From positions 67,122 through 131,121 of the forward strand of contig JAHIRF010000002.1 of NCBI GenBank assembly GCA_018818785.1: a DNA stretch of 64,000 nucleotides. Reading direction: 5' to 3'. The notes under the pieces are model-generated. The model worked only from the letters and a program-made list of their open reading frames with translations, was not told where the DNA came from and did not search any database. The translations under genes were made by a program, and so were the position numbers. Shown here in pieces: positions 10,597-18,445 of the stretch. The stretch's first letter is position 1, and each line of letters opens with the position of its first letter. This DNA is from Thermoplasmatota archaeon. GTDB taxonomy: Archaea; Thermoplasmatota; Thermoplasmata; UBA10834.

Positions 10597-11520
10597 CTAC
10601 TTCACGATGTCCAGCCAGGATGAGTATTTGTCGTCCTTGCCTCTGGCGATCTGAAGGAATTTTTCCTGAAGTGCCATAGTGGTGGGGCCAGGTGAACCGT
10701 TGCCAACATTCCTTCGGTCTACCTCTCTGATAGGAGTGACTTCTGCTGCAGTGCCCGTAAAGAAGAGCTCATCAGCAAGATACATTTCGCCTCTGGAGAA
10801 ATCTTGTTCGATCACCACAAACCCGAGATCTCTTGCGACTGTCATGACCGATTCTCTTGTTATGCCGGGAAGTACTCCTGTGCTAAGCGGCGGAGTCAGT
10901 AGCTTGCCATTCCTGACCATGAATATGTTCTCGCCGGAACCCTCGGCAACCATGTGCTGATCGTTGAGCATTATTGCTTCATCGAAACCATTCAGCTTCG
11001 CCTCCATGACTGCGAGAGCGCTGTTCAGGTAATCGCCGCATACCTTTGCGGTTGCGGGGACCGATCCAACGGGCATCCTATGCCATGAGGATGTGTGCAC
11101 CCTGATACCCTTCTTCATGCCTTCATCCCCTAGGTACGACCCCATGGGGAATGCGACGATGAATGTCTCGACGGGATAGCCGAGCGGGTTCACTCCGATG
11201 CCAGAAACCCCGAAGAATGAAATCGGCCGTATATAGCATGAATCCAGGTGGTTCACTTTGACGAGTTCTCTCGCTGCAGTGCAGAGTTCATCGATGCTAT
11301 GCGGTATCTCCATGTTGATTGCCTTTGCAGATGTGTGGAGTCTGGACATGTGCTCCTTCAGCCTGAAGATCGCGGGTCCTTTGTCCGTGCTGTAGCATCT
11401 GATTCCTTCGAAGGCTCCTGTCCCGTAATGCAGGCAATGCGTGAGCACGTGGACGGTCGCATCCTTCCACGATATCAACTCTCCATTCTTCCAGATCTTC
11501 TCCATTGGTTGAATCTGCAT
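10597..11520 (-). CDS. ilvE: Branched-chain amino acid aminotransferase
   Basis: LHYGTGAFEGIR, YIRP, AKVCGDY, EGSGENIF, LPGITR, GTAAEVTPI. Confidence 0.95.
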   Translation of the reverse strand: MQIQPMEKIWKNGELISWKDATVHVLTHCLHYGTGAFEGIRCYSTDKGPAIFRLKEHMSRLHTSAKAINMEIPHSIDELCTAARELVKVNHLDSCYIRPISFFGVSGIGVNPLGYPVETFIVAFPMGSYLGDEGMKKGIRVHTSSWHRMPVGSVPATAKVCGDYLNSALAVMEAKLNGFDEAIMLNDQHMVAEGSGENIFMVRNGKLLTPPLSTGVLPGITRESVMTVARDLGFVVIEQDFSRGEMYLADELFFTGTAAEVTPIREVDRRNVGNGSPGPTTMALQEKFLQIARGKDDKYSSWLDIVK

Positions 11521-11542: not shown

Positions 11543-12334
11543 CTAACTGACTACCCTGTTCTTCAAGCATCCGATACCTTCAAGATCGACCTCGACCAGG
11601 TCTCCGGGTCTCATGGCGGCGATTCCAGATGGTGTTCCCGTTGCAATGACATCTCCTGGCTCAAGTGTCATTACATTTGATATGTATTCGACCAAAGCCG
11701 CGTCATCGAACACCCTGTCGGATAATGGTGCATCCTGTACGATGTTCCCGTTCAACCTGGTCAATATGCGTGTCGGGGCCTGGCCTGAGACGAACGGGCC
11801 CATCGGGGCAAATGTGTCGAAGCCTTTCGCCCTTGTCCAATCAGGGTCGATCTTCTGGAGGTCGCGGGCGGTGACATCGTTCATGCATGTGAAGCCGAAA
11901 ATATGGGATCCGCCGTCATCGGTGTGCCTGGCCCTCTTGCCGATTATTATAGCGGATTCGCCCTCGTAATCTACTCTCGAAGACATCTGCGGTATGCGTA
12001 TATCGTCTCCTGGACCGATTATTGCAGAGGACGGTTTTGTGAAGATTATTGGCACCTTCGGTACCTCCCAGTTCATCTCCTCTATATGACTTCGATAGTT
12101 GAGTCCGATGCAGATGATTTTGGACGGTCTCGGAAATGGTGCGAGCACGGTGACTCGCAAGGATGGGTGACGGATCGCCTTCTCGGCGAATCCATGGCTG
12201 AGAACGTCCTCCATGGAGGTCTGGTCCGTCTCTATGACTTCGTCTCCATCGACGATTCCGACGAACATTCGGTCCTCAATCCTGAATCGGCCCAGCCGGA
12301 TTCCGTTTGGTATCGAGGGTTCCAACTTATCCAC
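11543..12334 (-). CDS. Fumarylacetoacetate hydrolase family protein
   Basis: CIGLNYRSH, DYEGE, NDVTARD, WTRAKGFDTF, TGTPSG. Confidence 0.92.
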   Translation of the reverse strand: MDKLEPSIPNGIRLGRFRIEDRMFVGIVDGDEVIETDQTSMEDVLSHGFAEKAIRHPSLRVTVLAPFPRPSKIICIGLNYRSHIEEMNWEVPKVPIIFTKPSSAIIGPGDDIRIPQMSSRVDYEGESAIIIGKRARHTDDGGSHIFGFTCMNDVTARDLQKIDPDWTRAKGFDTFAPMGPFVSGQAPTRILTRLNGNIVQDAPLSDRVFDDAALVEYISNVMTLEPGDVIATGTPSGIAAMRPGDLVEVDLEGIGCLKNRVVS

Positions 12335-12386: not shown

Positions 12387-13367
12387 CTACTTGAACATCT
12401 TTCTTATCGATCTGCCGACGACTTCGATCTGGTCCTTCTCACCGTCTTTCCTCAGCTTGGTAAGAGTGGCCATCCCGGAATTGCATTCGTTGACCCATTC
12501 CTTCGCAAACGCGCCCGACTGGATCTCTTTGAGGACTGCCTGCATGCTCTTCTTCACGCGAGCATCGATTATCCTGGGTCCACGCGTCCTTCCACCGTAT
12601 TCCGCGGTGTTTGATACATTGTTCCACATACCCTCGATGCCGCCCTTCTGGACGAGGTCGATTATGAGCTTGAGTTCATGGAGGACCTCGAAATATGCGA
12701 TCTCTGGTTGGTAACCAGCTTCGACAAGCACTTCGAACGATTTCTTTATGAGATCGCTCGCGCCGCCGCATAGATCAACTTGTTCTCCGAACAGGTCGGT
12801 CTCAGTCTCCTCAGTGAAAGTCGTCTCGATGACCCCCTTGGTCGTCGCTCCCAGTCCCTTCGCGATGGCGAGCGCGGTTTTCTTGGCCTTACCGCTCGCA
12901 TCCTGATGGACGGCTATCAATGCCGGCACTCCATTGCCTGCCACGAATGTCTCTCGAACCAAAGCACCAGGCCCTTTCGGGGCCACCATTATGACATCGA
13001 CGTCCTTCGGCGGGACAATGAGTTTGAAGTGTATGTTGAATCCGTGGGCGAAGTCGAGAGTCATCCCTGCCTTCAAGTTTGGCGCCACCTCAGAGTCGTA
13101 GGCCATCTTCTGGACCTCGTCCGGGATGAGCATCATGACGATATCGGCATTCTTGACCGCCGTGGGGATGTCCAAGACTTCCATCTTATCGGCCTTTGCG
13201 CGCTTCCAGTAATCGTCTCTGAACTTGAGTCCGACTACCACGTTCACTCCACTGTCTCTAAGGTTGAGCGACTGTGCTCTGCCCTGTATCCCGTATCCTA
13301 TCACTGCGACCTTCTTGCCCTTGAGGGCATTCAGGTTCGCATCCTTGTTGTAGTATATCCTAGCCAT
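12387..13367 (-). CDS. ilvC: Ketol-acid reductoisomerase (class I)
   Basis: GYGIQG, FAHGFNIH, APKGPG, EETETDLFGEQ, SNTAEYG. Confidence 0.97.
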   Translation of the reverse strand: MARIYYNKDANLNALKGKKVAVIGYGIQGRAQSLNLRDSGVNVVVGLKFRDDYWKRAKADKMEVLDIPTAVKNADIVMMLIPDEVQKMAYDSEVAPNLKAGMTLDFAHGFNIHFKLIVPPKDVDVIMVAPKGPGALVRETFVAGNGVPALIAVHQDASGKAKKTALAIAKGLGATTKGVIETTFTEETETDLFGEQVDLCGGASDLIKKSFEVLVEAGYQPEIAYFEVLHELKLIIDLVQKGGIEGMWNNVSNTAEYGGRTRGPRIIDARVKKSMQAVLKEIQSGAFAKEWVNECNSGMATLTKLRKDGEKDQIEVVGRSIRKMFK

Positions 13368-13384
13368 TGTCGACCACTCCGTTT

Positions 13385-13747
13385 TCAAATCGCATTCATA
13401 GCTTCTATGTATCTTTTAGGTTGGCTCTTCATGACGAGAGCCTCAACCTCTTCGACCGTTCCTGTGACTCGGCATATCCCTTGCTTGCCTTGCATGATAG
13501 CATATGCCTCGTGTCTATCTGAATCGACGATGTCGGCTTCAATGACTTCCTGGAGCGCTCTCAGGTGCTCGAGCACGCCGTGTGCCTTCTCCTTGTCAGT
13601 GACGGAGAGCACTATCCTTGCTCTCTCGGGCATTTCACACTTGCCGACCACGATGGTCTCGACATTTATCCTCTTTCGGGTGAACTCGCCCATCACACGT
13701 TGCATTACACCGGGCTGGTCGTACACCAAGAGCATCATGACTTCCAT
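13385..13747 (-). CDS. ilvN: Acetolactate synthase regulatory (ACT) subunit
   Basis: DQPGVMQRVMGEFTRKRINVETI; position between ilvB and ilvC. Confidence 0.85.
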   Translation of the reverse strand: MEVMMLLVYDQPGVMQRVMGEFTRKRINVETIVVGKCEMPERARIVLSVTDKEKAHGVLEHLRALQEVIEADIVDSDRHEAYAIMQGKQGICRVTGTVEEVEALVMKSQPKRYIEAMNAI

Positions 13748-15430
13748 CTAATCGCCACCTCCTTTCCATATGCATCTTCCCTTTATGCATTCCGAGGATG
13801 CCTTGCCAGGTGGTGTCATTGGAAGGACGTCCTCCTCGGGATCAATCACGAAATCGAGCAATATCGGGACCTGGGATTTGATTCCCCTCTCGATGGCTTC
13901 TGCGACCTCTGACTGTTTCTCCACTCGTATCGCATCCGCCCCGTAGGCCTCCGCGAGCTTGACGAAATCGGGGTTCCTGCCGAACTCGGTCGCTATGTAT
14001 CTTGAGCCATAAAACAGCTTCTGCCACTGCTTTACGTTGCCGAGCCATCCGTTATTCAGGAGGCATACGATCACCGGTATGTCGTTCTCGACCGCCGTTG
14101 CGAACTCATGCGTGACCATCTGCAGGCTACCATCGCCTGCGATATCGGCGACGACACTATCGGGTCTGGCCAATTTCGCACCTATGGCCGCAGGGAACCC
14201 GAAACCCATGGTCCCTAGACCACCTGATGTGATGAACATGCGGTTGTCTTGACATTCGTAGAAGTGCAGCGCCCACATCTGGTTCTGGCCCACCTCGGTC
14301 GTGACAATCGCGTCGTCTGGCAATAGCTTCGACAGATCATGTATTACTTTCTGTGGTTTGATCGGATTTGATTTGATGTTGTAGTCGCAGGTGCATTCCT
14401 TCTTGAGTATCTTTATCCTCTCGATCCAGGTGGCCTTCTTCTTTCGTTTCTGCAGGCCTGCAATTAGGGCATTGACCACAGTCCATGCATCGCCCACAAG
14501 ACCGACCCTGCCCTTCACATTCTTGCCTATCTCGGACGAGTCGATATCGACATGGACTACCTTCGTCTTGGCTCCAAACTCGCTGAGCTTGCCAGTCACC
14601 CTGTCACTGAACCTGGTCCCGATTGCAAGGAGGACGTCGCAGTTGTTCAATGCATAGTTGGCCACTTGCTTCCCATGCATTCCACACACACCCAGGACAA
14701 GTGGATGGTTATCTGGGACGGACCCTTTTGCCATCAGTGTGGTGACAATGGGCGCCATCAACATCTCTGATAGCACGGCGATCTCAGGTCCCGCTCTTGA
14801 CCAAGTGACTCCTCCACCCACCATTATTGTTGGCCTCTCCGCCGATTCGAGCAGCTTGATTGCGTCGAGGAGGCCTGATAGGTTCCTGCGAGGCTTAGGC
14901 ACTCTGGCCTTAACATCGAGTTCCTCTTCGGTGTAATCCGCCTGGAATATGTCCGTTGGTATGTCTATGTGGACGGGTCCATATCTTCCTGTCGTGGCTA
15001 TCATGAACGCCCGGTTGATGGATTCAGGAAGGGCCTTCGGGTCAGTTATTCTGAAGTTGTGCTTCGTTATCGGCATCATGAGGCTGAAAGAGTCCGCTTC
15101 CTGGAACGCATCATTTCCCAGCACTCCCGTTGCCACTTGACCAGTTATCGCGATTATGGGTGATGAGTCCATGAATGCGGTGGCGACACCCGTCACCATA
15201 TTTGTCGCTCCTGGTCCCGAGGTTGCTACGCACACGCCAGGCCTCTTGGAGACCCTCGCATAACCATCAGCCATGTGTGCCGCGCACTGTTCATGGCGCA
15301 CAAGGATATGCCTGATATCCGAGTCCACGAGCTCGTCGTAGAACGGAAGTAGAACGCCGCCGGGTATGCCAAACATCAGATCGACATTCTGTTTCTCCAG
15401 CAATTTCACGGTGGCTCTGGCACCTTTCAT
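13748..15430 (-). CDS. ilvB: Acetolactate synthase large subunit
   Basis: FGIPGG, RHEQCAAHMADGYAR, GQNQMW, GDGS...NNG TPP motif; GAGGAG SD upstream of ATG 15430. Confidence 0.96.
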   Translation of the reverse strand: MKGARATVKLLEKQNVDLMFGIPGGVLLPFYDELVDSDIRHILVRHEQCAAHMADGYARVSKRPGVCVATSGPGATNMVTGVATAFMDSSPIIAITGQVATGVLGNDAFQEADSFSLMMPITKHNFRITDPKALPESINRAFMIATTGRYGPVHIDIPTDIFQADYTEEELDVKARVPKPRRNLSGLLDAIKLLESAERPTIMVGGGVTWSRAGPEIAVLSEMLMAPIVTTLMAKGSVPDNHPLVLGVCGMHGKQVANYALNNCDVLLAIGTRFSDRVTGKLSEFGAKTKVVHVDIDSSEIGKNVKGRVGLVGDAWTVVNALIAGLQKRKKKATWIERIKILKKECTCDYNIKSNPIKPQKVIHDLSKLLPDDAIVTTEVGQNQMWALHFYECQDNRMFITSGGLGTMGFGFPAAIGAKLARPDSVVADIAGDGSLQMVTHEFATAVENDIPVIVCLLNNGWLGNVKQWQKLFYGSRYIATEFGRNPDFVKLAEAYGADAIRVEKQSEVAEAIERGIKSQVPILLDFVIDPEEDVLPMTPPGKASSECIKGRCIWKGGGD

Positions 15431-15493
15431 CTCTAATTCACACTCCTCAAATCCTGCCCGCATGGACACAAGACCGCTCAGGTCGCATGCCCA

Positions 15494-15574
15494 TCACAGG
15501 CTTACAATCCGCAGGTCGACAATGACCTCTAGGGTCCCAAGAAGAAGCGTCAGATCGACTTGACCAGCGGACAT
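15494..15574 (-). CDS. Putative ilv leader (attenuator) peptide MSAGQVDLTLLLGTLEVIVDLRIVSL
   Basis: ATG-TGA 27-codon ORF read by hand; 13 of 26 residues are Leu/Val/Ile, including CTT-CTT-CTT; lies between a TATA box and ilvB. Confidence 0.72.
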   Translation of the reverse strand: MSAGQVDLTLLLGTLEVIVDLRIVSL

Positions 15575-15600
15575 TTGTACCGGGTTTGTAGATGATTGTC

Positions 15601-15614
15601 GATATATTAATATC
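15601..15614 (-). promoter_or_regulatory. TATA box of ilv leader/ilvBNC transcript
   Basis: Minus strand TTAATATA (15610-15603) about 30 nt upstream of the leader ATG. Confidence 0.6.
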
Positions 15615-15681
15615 TTGTCTGGACGGACTTGACCATTGAACGATATGCTCATTTGGACATAATTGTACATACTTCGATGGC

Positions 15682-16725: not shown

Positions 16726-18192
16726 TCAGTTGAGTCCGTTATCGCGGATATCTTTCTCCGCAGCGACAACTATGTCTTCGAACTGCTTCGAGACTTCAGT
16801 TGCGACAGGCTGCACAACATGCTCCTTCATGATCTTTGCAACCTTCTCCCTAGCGCGGTCGACGGCACTCTTCTTGCCGTCTGCTTCCCAGAGCTCGCCT
16901 GTCCTCCTGTCAGTTATATCTGTCATGAAGTGCTCCTTGTGAAGCCAGTTCATGGTGTGTCTTTCTGGAAGGAAGCTTCCGCCAGGGCCGACCTTCTTAA
17001 TCAGGTCGATCGCCATGTGGTCGTCGTCAACGATCACGCCCTGGGCGAGTCTCGCCATTATCTTGACCATCTCGTTGTCGATAACCATCTGCTCGTAGCA
17101 CAGCATCGAGACATCGTCGAGCAGACCCAATCCTGCGACCATGTCGCAGCCAGCGTAGAACTGGGGCATTCCGCTGGACATCTTCTCGTAGCAGGACTGC
17201 GGGCCTGGTACCTTTGCAGAGGTGACTATTCCGCCACAGAGTATCGGGAATCCGTACCAGTGTGCAAGTTCTCCCGCTCCGCTGGATATAAGGGCCCTCT
17301 CCGGTCCGCCGCCTGCCCATGTCATGGTCTTCATATCAAAGGCCGCTCCGCCCGTCCCATAGATGAATGGTGAGCCAGGAGCTGCGAGTTGAGCCGTAGT
17401 CAGTCCCGCGAGTACTTCAGCGTTATTGACAATGATTGATCCGGCGAGCGTCACAGGTCCAGTGATACCTGCCTGTGGCATTCCGTAGAACGATATCGGC
17501 ACGCCTGCCCTCGCCAGCGCGAGTGCACCTTCAGTCGAACCTCCGTCAAGCTGTAGAGGAGAGAACGGGCAGTGCATGGACGAGAAGATTGGTCTTCTCC
17601 TCAATTCCTTCTCGCCGCCTGCGAGTGCGGAACCGAGTTTGATGAGCCACTGTGCCTCTCTCCTGTGACTGGTCGTCTCTACCTGTACGTGCTTCTCGAT
17701 GCTCATGAGGGCGACCTTGAGGTCGACGACATGTCTGTAATAATCAGGTATGTCTTGGCTGCTCACGCAAGGCCAGAAGATGTGAGCGGAATCCAGAGCG
17801 TTAGCGACCTTGCCAACCATCTCAAGATCCTTGCTCGTGGACATGCGTCTCTTTCCGGTCTCGAAATCCATAACGCCCGTGCCGTTTCCATCCGTGCAGC
17901 AGTAGACTCTTCGTCCATCGAGTACCACATCGTATTTTGGGTTACGGGCAAAGAGCGTGATGTTCTTCTTGGCCTTGGTAATGGCTTCTTCTACGAGATT
18001 ACCAGGGATCTTTGCACTGCTCTGCTTGTAATCCACAGTAGCCCCTGCAGCTTCAAGGAGCTTCAGACATTCTTCGCTGAAGACTTTTATGCCTGCGTTC
18101 TCGAGCACGTCCAACGTTCCCCAGTGAAGTGATTCCAGGTCCGTCTCCTGGAACATTCGGAACGCGATCTTTCCTTTCGGGAAACCAATCAT
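16726..18192 (-). CDS. Trimethylamine methyltransferase (MttB) superfamily, non-pyrrolysine
   Basis: SPLQLD, GITGPVTLAG, NAEVLAG, SAKVPGPQSCYEK, YEQMVIDNE, VGPGGSFL; no in-frame amber. Confidence 0.92.
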   Translation of the reverse strand: MIGFPKGKIAFRMFQETDLESLHWGTLDVLENAGIKVFSEECLKLLEAAGATVDYKQSSAKIPGNLVEEAITKAKKNITLFARNPKYDVVLDGRRVYCCTDGNGTGVMDFETGKRRMSTSKDLEMVGKVANALDSAHIFWPCVSSQDIPDYYRHVVDLKVALMSIEKHVQVETTSHRREAQWLIKLGSALAGGEKELRRRPIFSSMHCPFSPLQLDGGSTEGALALARAGVPISFYGMPQAGITGPVTLAGSIIVNNAEVLAGLTTAQLAAPGSPFIYGTGGAAFDMKTMTWAGGGPERALISSGAGELAHWYGFPILCGGIVTSAKVPGPQSCYEKMSSGMPQFYAGCDMVAGLGLLDDVSMLCYEQMVIDNEMVKIMARLAQGVIVDDDHMAIDLIKKVGPGGSFLPERHTMNWLHKEHFMTDITDRRTGELWEADGKKSAVDRAREKVAKIMKEHVVQPVATEVSKQFEDIVVAAEKDIRDNGLN

Positions 18193-18445
18193 TTCAACAT
18201 TCCCCTGTTTTGCTTCCACGGCCAGAGTATCACTCCGACTGTGCGCTTCGAGTACACCGTATTGCAAATGAGTATTTATTTGCTGATGTTGAGGTGCAAC
18301 GATAGACAGGTATGTTCATTGGGGCTGCTGGCTAGTGAGGATTCGGCTCTGCTCTCATCATCTGCTTCAGAGGCGATGCACGCACAGATCGATACGAAAG
18401 GCTTTAATGAGGGAACATATATCGACCGAAGGCCAGCACCATCAA

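Follow-up and report, generated by a model that had tools for sequence, protein, structure and literature searches.

The window, as the whole stretch of 64,000 nucleotides of DNA analysed here is called, is archaeal, as indicated by an RNase P RNA of archaeal type (1946-2261). Judged from its sequence, the region discussed below is the 5' leader of a predicted archaeal ilvB-ilvN-ilvC-(FAH)-ilvE operon. The acetolactate synthase encoded by ilvB matched TIGR00118 with 733 bits (cut-off 538). In the apparent operon the gene of the FAH (fumarylacetoacetate-hydrolase) family is placed between ilvC and ilvE. The 250-nt gap between ilvB and the preceding gene harbours a TATA-like box, a 26-codon ORF, three candidate pairings (a, b and c) and the ilvB Shine-Dalgarno (SD) sequence GAGGAG. 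These pairings had been drawn by hand in a first-pass annotation; mapping by script confirmed that a, b and c consist of 37 base pairs, every one of them standard at the minus-strand positions assigned to it. The features, listed in the direction of transcription, are:

16626-15682, minus strand: gene for a threonine-synthase-like PLP enzyme (Pfam/NCBIfam), 250 nt from ilvB
15603-15612, minus strand: TATA-like box TATTAATATA of the leader/ilvB promoter (sequence and spacing in homologs)
15494-15574, minus strand: leader ORF MSAGQVDLTLLLGTLEVIVDLRIVSL, 26 codons plus TGA, intact in homologs
15562-15572, minus strand: 5' strand of helix b, GUCCGC-U-GGUC, codons 1-5 (pairing in homologs)
15518-15561, minus strand: loop of helix b with most of the Leu/Val/Ile codons, including three CUU codons at 15547-15539 (sequence)
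15542-15550, minus strand: candidate anti-SD ACGCUUCUU of pairing a, present, at chance level and not conserved
15529-15531, minus strand: UAG in the +1 frame, overlapping a CUA Leu codon (invariant columns in two alignments)
15507-15517, minus strand: 3' strand of helix b, GACC-U-GCGGAU, codons Asp20-Ile23 (pairing in homologs)
15456-15501, minus strand: hairpin c, with the leader stop codon TGA (15496-15494) in its 5' arm (covariation)
15440-15448, minus strand: ilvB Shine-Dalgarno region GAGGAGUGU (sequence; GGAG-like motif in most homologs)
13748-15430, minus strand: ilvB, acetolactate synthase large subunit, ATG at 15430 (Pfam TPP_enzyme N, M and C domains; TIGR00118)
13385-13747, minus strand: gene for an ilvN-like ACT protein (Pfam/NCBIfam)
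12387-13388, minus strand: ilvC (Pfam/NCBIfam)
11543-12334, minus strand: FAH-family gene (Pfam/NCBIfam)
10597-11520, minus strand: ilvE (Pfam/NCBIfam)

A homolog of the MttB methyltransferase family, encoded at 16726-18267 on the minus strand, spans 513 codons without an in-frame stop and is thus a non-pyrrolysine member of this family.

In 37 of 46 homologs the core of the TATA-like box (TAATA or TTATA) is located 28-29 nt upstream of the leader ATG; the spacing is 35 nt in the cluster to which the window belongs (4 homologs) and 26-31 nt in the other 5. This spacing fits a leaderless or near-leaderless start, and the leader transcript is therefore probably leaderless or nearly so, with its start placed by the distance to the TATA box. 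Inspection by eye placed the TATA box within a near-palindrome (AGATATTAATATCT-like), both in the window (15585-15625, minus strand) and in the homologous promoters. In many relatives this near-palindrome is flanked by GCCAAG ... TTGGC/CGGCTGG, and in most genera a conserved ATTGC was seen ~14 nt upstream of the leader ATG, again by eye. The palindrome is a candidate operator, at which a transcription factor may exert control in addition to that by the leader. In one sediment metatranscriptome run a single 151-nt contig covered 15420-15570 (depth 2.6, 3 differences), reaching from leader codon 2 to ilvB codon 4. It possibly derives from DNA; variants of it were present in the three DNA runs examined, and assembled contigs of public runs show neither RNA ends nor RNA levels.

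Of 41 related genomes, 30 yielded an ilvB homolog. An ORF of 26-30 codons, situated 53-65 nt upstream of ilvB, was present in 27 of the 29 upstream regions that could be extracted; these 27 all belong to the two families of the order, and the 2 regions without such an ORF come from other families. A covariance model built from helices b and c (R1; 128 positions, 23 pairs) matched strongly, and once in each genome, in 46 of the 49 genomes from this uncultured Thermoplasmata order, numbers that are not independent as the homologs were drawn from only six genera. In a class-wide sample, R1 matched 15/15 and 2/2 genomes of the two families and 0/133 genomes of 27 other families outside the order. 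The one match in the window's own genome is that before ilvB, and R1 detected no second element of the ilvB type there. Genome contigs were also scanned with an unspecific, 14-base degenerate pattern. When R1 was applied to 80 of the 120 stretches retrieved, at least three strong matches were obtained, in MAG records labelled Thermoplasmata, Euryarchaeota and Methanobacteriota archaeon, besides 4 weak, chance-like ones. The alignment used for the pairing statistics (A3) was fitted to the R1 structure; a MAFFT alignment (A1) gave similar values, with 82.5% of cells paired for b and 84.1% for c.

The leader ORF (26-30 codons) is in frame and intact in 49/49 model hits. It occurs in five different lengths among these hits and the position of its stop codon within hairpin c is constant. 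Leu and Val make up 23% and 16% of the leader residues, compared to 9% and 8% in the genome (970 long ORFs); Ile, at 6.5%, is close to its genomic share of 6.8%. Together these three residues account for 45% of the leader peptides, and Phe, Met, Trp and Tyr combined for just 6 of 1237 residues, versus 11% in the genome. The bias is seen in a core of 10 codons, of which 76% encode Leu, Val or Ile. T occupies the second position of these core codons in 76% of cases, the first in 3% and the third in 30%. Leu, Val and Ile replace each other at single core columns while this T at codon position 2 is kept, which argues for selection on codon class in this reading frame. As far as sequence comparison can tell, the core pattern is one of selection on codon class in frame, and neither that of a generic hydrophobic peptide nor that of an RNA structure. 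Furthermore, minor codons are over-used in the leaders when the codon usage of the window's genome is taken as a proxy for every leader: CTA 19% vs 7%, CTT 22% vs 12%, ATT 55% vs 12% and GTT 22% vs 11%. The ORF continues to carry Leu and Ile codons as far as its last codon. The codon overlapped by the invariant UAG is GUA (Val) in the sister family, and the UAG itself lies at a constant distance of 15 nt upstream of the 3' strand of helix b; CUA represents 7% of the genome's Leu codons. This UAG could mark a key codon that is read slowly, or act as a stop in a different frame or as an RNA contact.

A peptide function was weighed against these data. The ORF could encode a hydrophobic micro-protein, or be non-regulatory, with b and c merely stabilising or processing the 5' end of the mRNA and no sensing taking place. 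Stem-loops at the 5' end commonly stabilise mRNAs, and the leaders do share a conserved C-terminal peptide motif, L-G/E-V-L-V-D-L-R-I. This explanation is nevertheless unlikely, since a micro-protein would not account for the interchange of Leu, Val and Ile at core columns with T retained at position 2, nor for the near absence of other hydrophobic residues. The conservation of D-L-R-I extends to synonymous sites, indicating a constraint on the RNA, and the element occurs exclusively before ilvB, with a Leu-only counterpart before leuA (see below). It is likely that the leader ORF is a sensor of branched-chain amino acid supply that is read by the ribosome. The first-pass annotation had already described a structured leader with a translated-looking ORF rich in Leu, Val and Ile, a description borne out by the conserved frame, the codon bias and helices b and c.

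Hairpin c is the best supported of the three pairings. In the window it folds with dG -27.7 and z -3.8 (200 dinucleotide shuffles), and across the homologs the median values are -26.8 and -4.1, with p<=0.05 in 46/46. Among 45 distinct homologs 87.5% of cells are paired, compared to 37-43% with a slid partner strand. Both sides have changed in 8 of the 13 pairs, and the resulting covariation score was reached by 0/500 shuffles. Hairpin c can thus firmly be predicted to be a real, conserved and covarying structure, and the earlier proposal of a long hairpin that includes the leader stop codon was confirmed. The ilvB start follows the end of the hairpin at a variable spacing of 17-28 nt. U residues are unevenly distributed in hairpin c, with 14% in the 5' arm and 30% in the loop plus 3' arm, and in the sister family the loop contains a run of U4-U7. 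Hairpin c was also inspected by eye as a K-turn or a bulge-helix-bulge and rejected as either: it has a single bulged purine, without the 3-nt bulge and tandem G-A.

For helix b the evidence is of a different kind. The best duplex in the window has a dG of -21.7 (z -1.9); across the homologs the medians are -21.6 and -1.72, with p<=0.05 in 23/46. Among the 45 distinct homologs 83% of cells are paired, compared to 28-41% when one strand is slid. Covariation is slight, with both-side changes in 5 cells and a score that 37/500 shuffles reached. Thus the complementarity claimed for helix b in the first-pass annotation was upheld, with little covariation to add to it. The CUG and CGG codons in the helix are nearly invariant even at synonymous sites, and the CC of a Ser/Thr/Ala codon is retained despite the change of amino acid. 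Conservation of the D-L-R-I codons that reaches synonymous sites points to a constraint on the RNA; both strands of helix b are coding, and selection on the peptide could explain part of its conservation. Helix b is probably real on these sequence comparisons. In one genus it is extended in MFE folds by a different inner helix, GACAAGG/CCUUGUC. A search of all column pairs in the 46-sequence alignment revealed no conserved internal helix in the loop of b, and the loop sequence is variable apart from an invariant unpaired CUAG.

This CUAG is compatible with yet another explanation, in which b and c together form the binding site of a regulatory protein or small ligand, riboswitch- or TRAP-like, and the ORF is secondary. 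A protein-binding role has been proposed for the actinobacterial LEU element, according to the available part of the report (PMC1262725), and the palindrome seen by eye at the TATA box hints at extra control by a transcription factor. A binding site of this kind is very unlikely here. It leaves unexplained that in 49/49 hits the ORF keeps its frame, its length class and the position of its stop, and that codon periodicity is strong, the loop of b varies outside CUAG, and no Rfam family matched even at E values up to 10. More precisely, no Rfam model reached its gathering score in the leader, and within E up to 10 the search returned a chance match to a mammalian lncRNA model (E 3.9).

Folding of the whole 166-nt leader gave an MFE of -55.9 kcal/mol (z -0.97), an unexceptional value that 37/200 shuffles equalled. 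The MFE structure includes a and c and excludes b. No site resembling an intrinsic terminator was found in the leader: between the leader stop and ilvB the longest U run is 5 or more in 3/46 homologs and 1-3 in 36/46. The statement in the first-pass annotation that no U-tract follows hairpin c, and that the hairpin is not a bacterial intrinsic terminator, was thus confirmed. Helices b and c do not share a strand. When all column pairs of the 46 sequences were searched from the leader start to ilvB +30, other conserved helices or pseudoknots were limited to options of 4-5 bp. The short helices UCCU/AGGA and UGCGG/CCGUG were considered among these and neither was convincing. In attenuator terms, b (1:2) and c (3:4) were found, and the sole candidate for a mutually exclusive 2:3 helix was the 5-bp UGCGG/CCGUG, which contains two G-U pairs.

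The central proposal of the first-pass annotation was translational attenuation through pairing a. The Leu codons in ACGCUUCUU would act as an anti-SD by pairing with the ilvB SD in a pseudoknot over helix b, and a ribosome stalled on the CUU codons would free the ribosome-binding site. The 9-bp pairing does exist and appears in the MFE fold of the window, and it would regulate ilvB with the correct sign. Mycobacteria provide a documented case of this logic, as far as the available part of bioRxiv 10.1101/834739 shows, and it was proposed for the actinobacterial LEU element in the accessible part of PMC1262725. However, pairing a does not rise above chance. In the window its dG is -11.1 (z -0.29), and 34% of shuffled ORFs form a duplex with the SD window that is at least as strong (p 0.34), in shuffles that preserve composition and thereby retain the pyrimidine richness of Leu/Val/Ile codons. 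Against dinucleotide-shuffled ORFs, the homologs have a median z of +0.35, with p<=0.05 in 1/46. The proportion of paired cells (67%) was reached by 155/500 shuffles and compares with 43-61% in slid controls. No covariation was detected for pairing a in the homolog alignment, its score being below the shuffle mean. Furthermore, the position of the best ORF/SD duplex wanders among homologs from codons 1-7 to codons 25-29. The Leu block is the predicted SD partner in 6 of 27 homologs, namely the window's four close relatives (L001-L004) and two others; the strongest case is homolog L042 (-15.8 kcal/mol, p=0.05). The variable spacing of 17-28 nt between hairpin c and the ilvB start also speaks against this proposal. 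Complementarity to the SD recurs only as the 4-bp UCCU/AGGA match (86%), which is missing from the window's own cluster.

The effect of a stalled ribosome on the ilvB SD was simulated with a footprint of 27 nt, from -15 to +11 relative to the first base of the A-site codon, in nested folds that contain no pseudoknots. In these folds the SD had a mean accessibility of 0.45 in the free leader, 0.49 when the ribosome was stalled on a central codon for Leu, Val or Ile, and 0.44 when it was placed on the stop codon. The window's own values were 0.43, 0.53 and 0.41, a change in the direction predicted by the anti-SD proposal. Stalling raised accessibility by more than 0.1 in 13/46 homologs and lowered it by more than 0.1 in 3/46, with smaller changes in the remainder. 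The liberation of the ilvB ribosome-binding site by a stalled ribosome, as first proposed, was thus hardly visible in a model that leaves out pseudoknots. Taken together, pairing a is very probably not the mechanism of this family, and translational attenuation through the Leu codons is quite unlikely as an account of the leader; within the window's own species cluster pairing a may add a little. Of the helices in the original proposal, covariation supports c, adds little for b and fails for a. Hand-drawn anti-SD pairings can arise merely because Leu/Val/Ile codons are rich in pyrimidines and SD sequences rich in purines.

A second leader was found in the same genome, outside the window, before leuA (contig C4:84442-84539; gene assigned by TIGR02090, 538 bits). 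Its ORF, MAQESKIQLILPLGLLILA, consists of 19 codons with an SD of its own and contains 6 Leu, 3 Ile and 0 Val codons. A T6 tract (84518-84523) immediately precedes the leuA SD, and the leuA ATG is at 84537. The DNA of this leader is conserved in 40/45 genomes of the family and in 0/3 of the sister family. The ORF contains 5-8 Leu and 0-1 Val codons in the 25 cleanly parsed of 28 unique sequences (L220, L223 and L224 were left out), and a run of T4-T6 is present in all 28. A CACUG upstream and a CAGUG downstream of the ORF look complementary by eye, with possible compensatory changes. The occurrence of leaders before ilvB and leuA that each match the products of their genes increases the confidence in reading these ORFs as sensors.

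The explanation of the ilvB leader that we favour, by a modest degree, is that of an ORF sensing the supply of branched-chain amino acids, with helix b around the sensor codons and hairpin c at the stop codon. Helix b probably joins the first codons of the ORF to the Asp-Leu-Arg-Ile codons, enclosing the sensor codons in an unstructured loop. On a leaderless transcript it would, after a first round of translation, lock the start region and keep an untranslated leader folded. In 46/46 homologs, 12-17 nt (median 15) lie between the first base of the stop codon and the point at which the 5' arm of c ends. At this distance a terminating ribosome would cover nearly the whole 5' arm, so it would have to melt c and would prevent c from folding behind RNA polymerase. 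An early stall on hungry Leu/Val/Ile codons would, conversely, allow c to fold. The one robust pair of alternative states that we can derive is folded c versus c kept open by a terminating ribosome. As c would refold on release of the ribosome, any output that works through it should arise co-transcriptionally.

The preferred output of this sensing leader would accordingly be one in which the termination factor FttA/aCPSF1, or a nuclease, has no access to the nascent RNA once c (and b) has folded; starvation would cause an early stall, c would fold and read-through would follow. An FttA-type output, which the first-pass annotation had named as an alternative, is put forward tentatively, as a minority option among the possible outputs. 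The genome does encode FttA/aCPSF1 (TIGR03675, 969 bits, cut-off 580), and so do archaeal control genomes, so that its presence discriminates nothing. Two points weigh against the favoured model: Leu and Ile codons extend up to the end of the ORF, so late stalls would mimic the state with a ribosome at the stop codon, and the refolding of c after departure of the ribosome demands a short kinetic window. In its most specific form the model describes an attenuator native to Archaea, without intrinsic terminator or SD masking, in which the pioneering ribosome on a leaderless ORF would set the folding of c, and c would shield the RNA from FttA/aCPSF1. This form is rather speculative, somewhat more so than an FttA-type output as such. 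If it is true, this archaeal order would possess, with the Leu-only leuA leader, a set of attenuators that are read by the ribosome and matched to the products of their genes. Control of ilvB through other outputs, be they translational, based on RNA stability or protein-mediated, takes up the remainder of the probability.

Leader-peptide attenuation is a textbook mechanism of bacteria that requires coupled transcription and translation as well as hairpin terminators. Archaea couple transcription and translation, and they terminate transcription differently. With the enterobacterial ilv and leu attenuators (general principle in the available part of PMC1183508) the archaeal ilvB leader shares a short upstream ORF, in which codons for the amino acids made by the operon are over-represented, and RNA helices that overlap this ORF; in both groups leaders are matched to their products, namely Leu/Val/Ile for ilvB and Leu only for leuA. 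The ilvB leader differs from them in the archaeal host, in the absence of a hairpin-plus-U-tract terminator and of a conserved 2:3 helix, in the position of the stop codon inside the main hairpin, and in the ORF, which is probably leaderless.

In the leaderless polycysteine sORFs of mycobacteria, an amino-acid operon begins with a sensory ORF and the signal is stalling on cognate codons, as described in the part of bioRxiv 10.1101/834739 that is available; the archaeal ORF, probably leaderless too, would work in a similar way. In these Cys-responsive attenuators, the same part states, stalling of the ribosome prevents a duplex in which the downstream ribosome-binding site is sequestered (bioRxiv 10.1101/834739). 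In contrast, no conserved duplex sequestering the SD was found in the archaeal ilvB leader. The LEU element before actinobacterial leuA (Seliverstov et al. 2005, PMC1262725, as far as the accessible part goes) likewise combines a Leu-codon ORF with a pseudoknot-type topology, and the window itself resembles it in its Leu-codon/SD stem. That stem is the conserved base stem of the LEU element according to the same part of the report (PMC1262725), whereas in the archaeal leader it occurs in a single species cluster and does not exceed chance. The helices conserved in the archaeal leader, b and c, make no contact with the SD.

A leader of the Corynebacterium ilvBNC genes was reportedly described by Morbach and co-workers in 2000. 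It has a leader peptide translated without ribosome-binding site, as is probable for the archaeal leader, and several hairpins (PMC11857589, PMC10272879); it is bacterial and is explained by a terminator hairpin model. A sequence or Rfam relation to the archaeal leader was not found. A full-text literature search for an archaeal amino-acid-sensing leader peptide yielded bacterial attenuators and papers on archaeal termination only, and the available portions of two reviews on archaeal coupling and termination mention no such peptide.

In Rho-dependent control by leader peptides, of the tna type, the position of the ribosome decides whether the termination factor gains access to the RNA. The output favoured here would follow the same logic, with archaeal termination by FttA/aCPSF1, as treated in the available parts of PMC11616081 and PMC8716108, in the place of Rho. 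With an element conserved throughout an order, a covarying hairpin and a partner before leuA, these leaders offer a concrete and testable archaeal case. It illustrates how an archaeal ribosome could report the supply of amino acids to the transcription or translation machinery.
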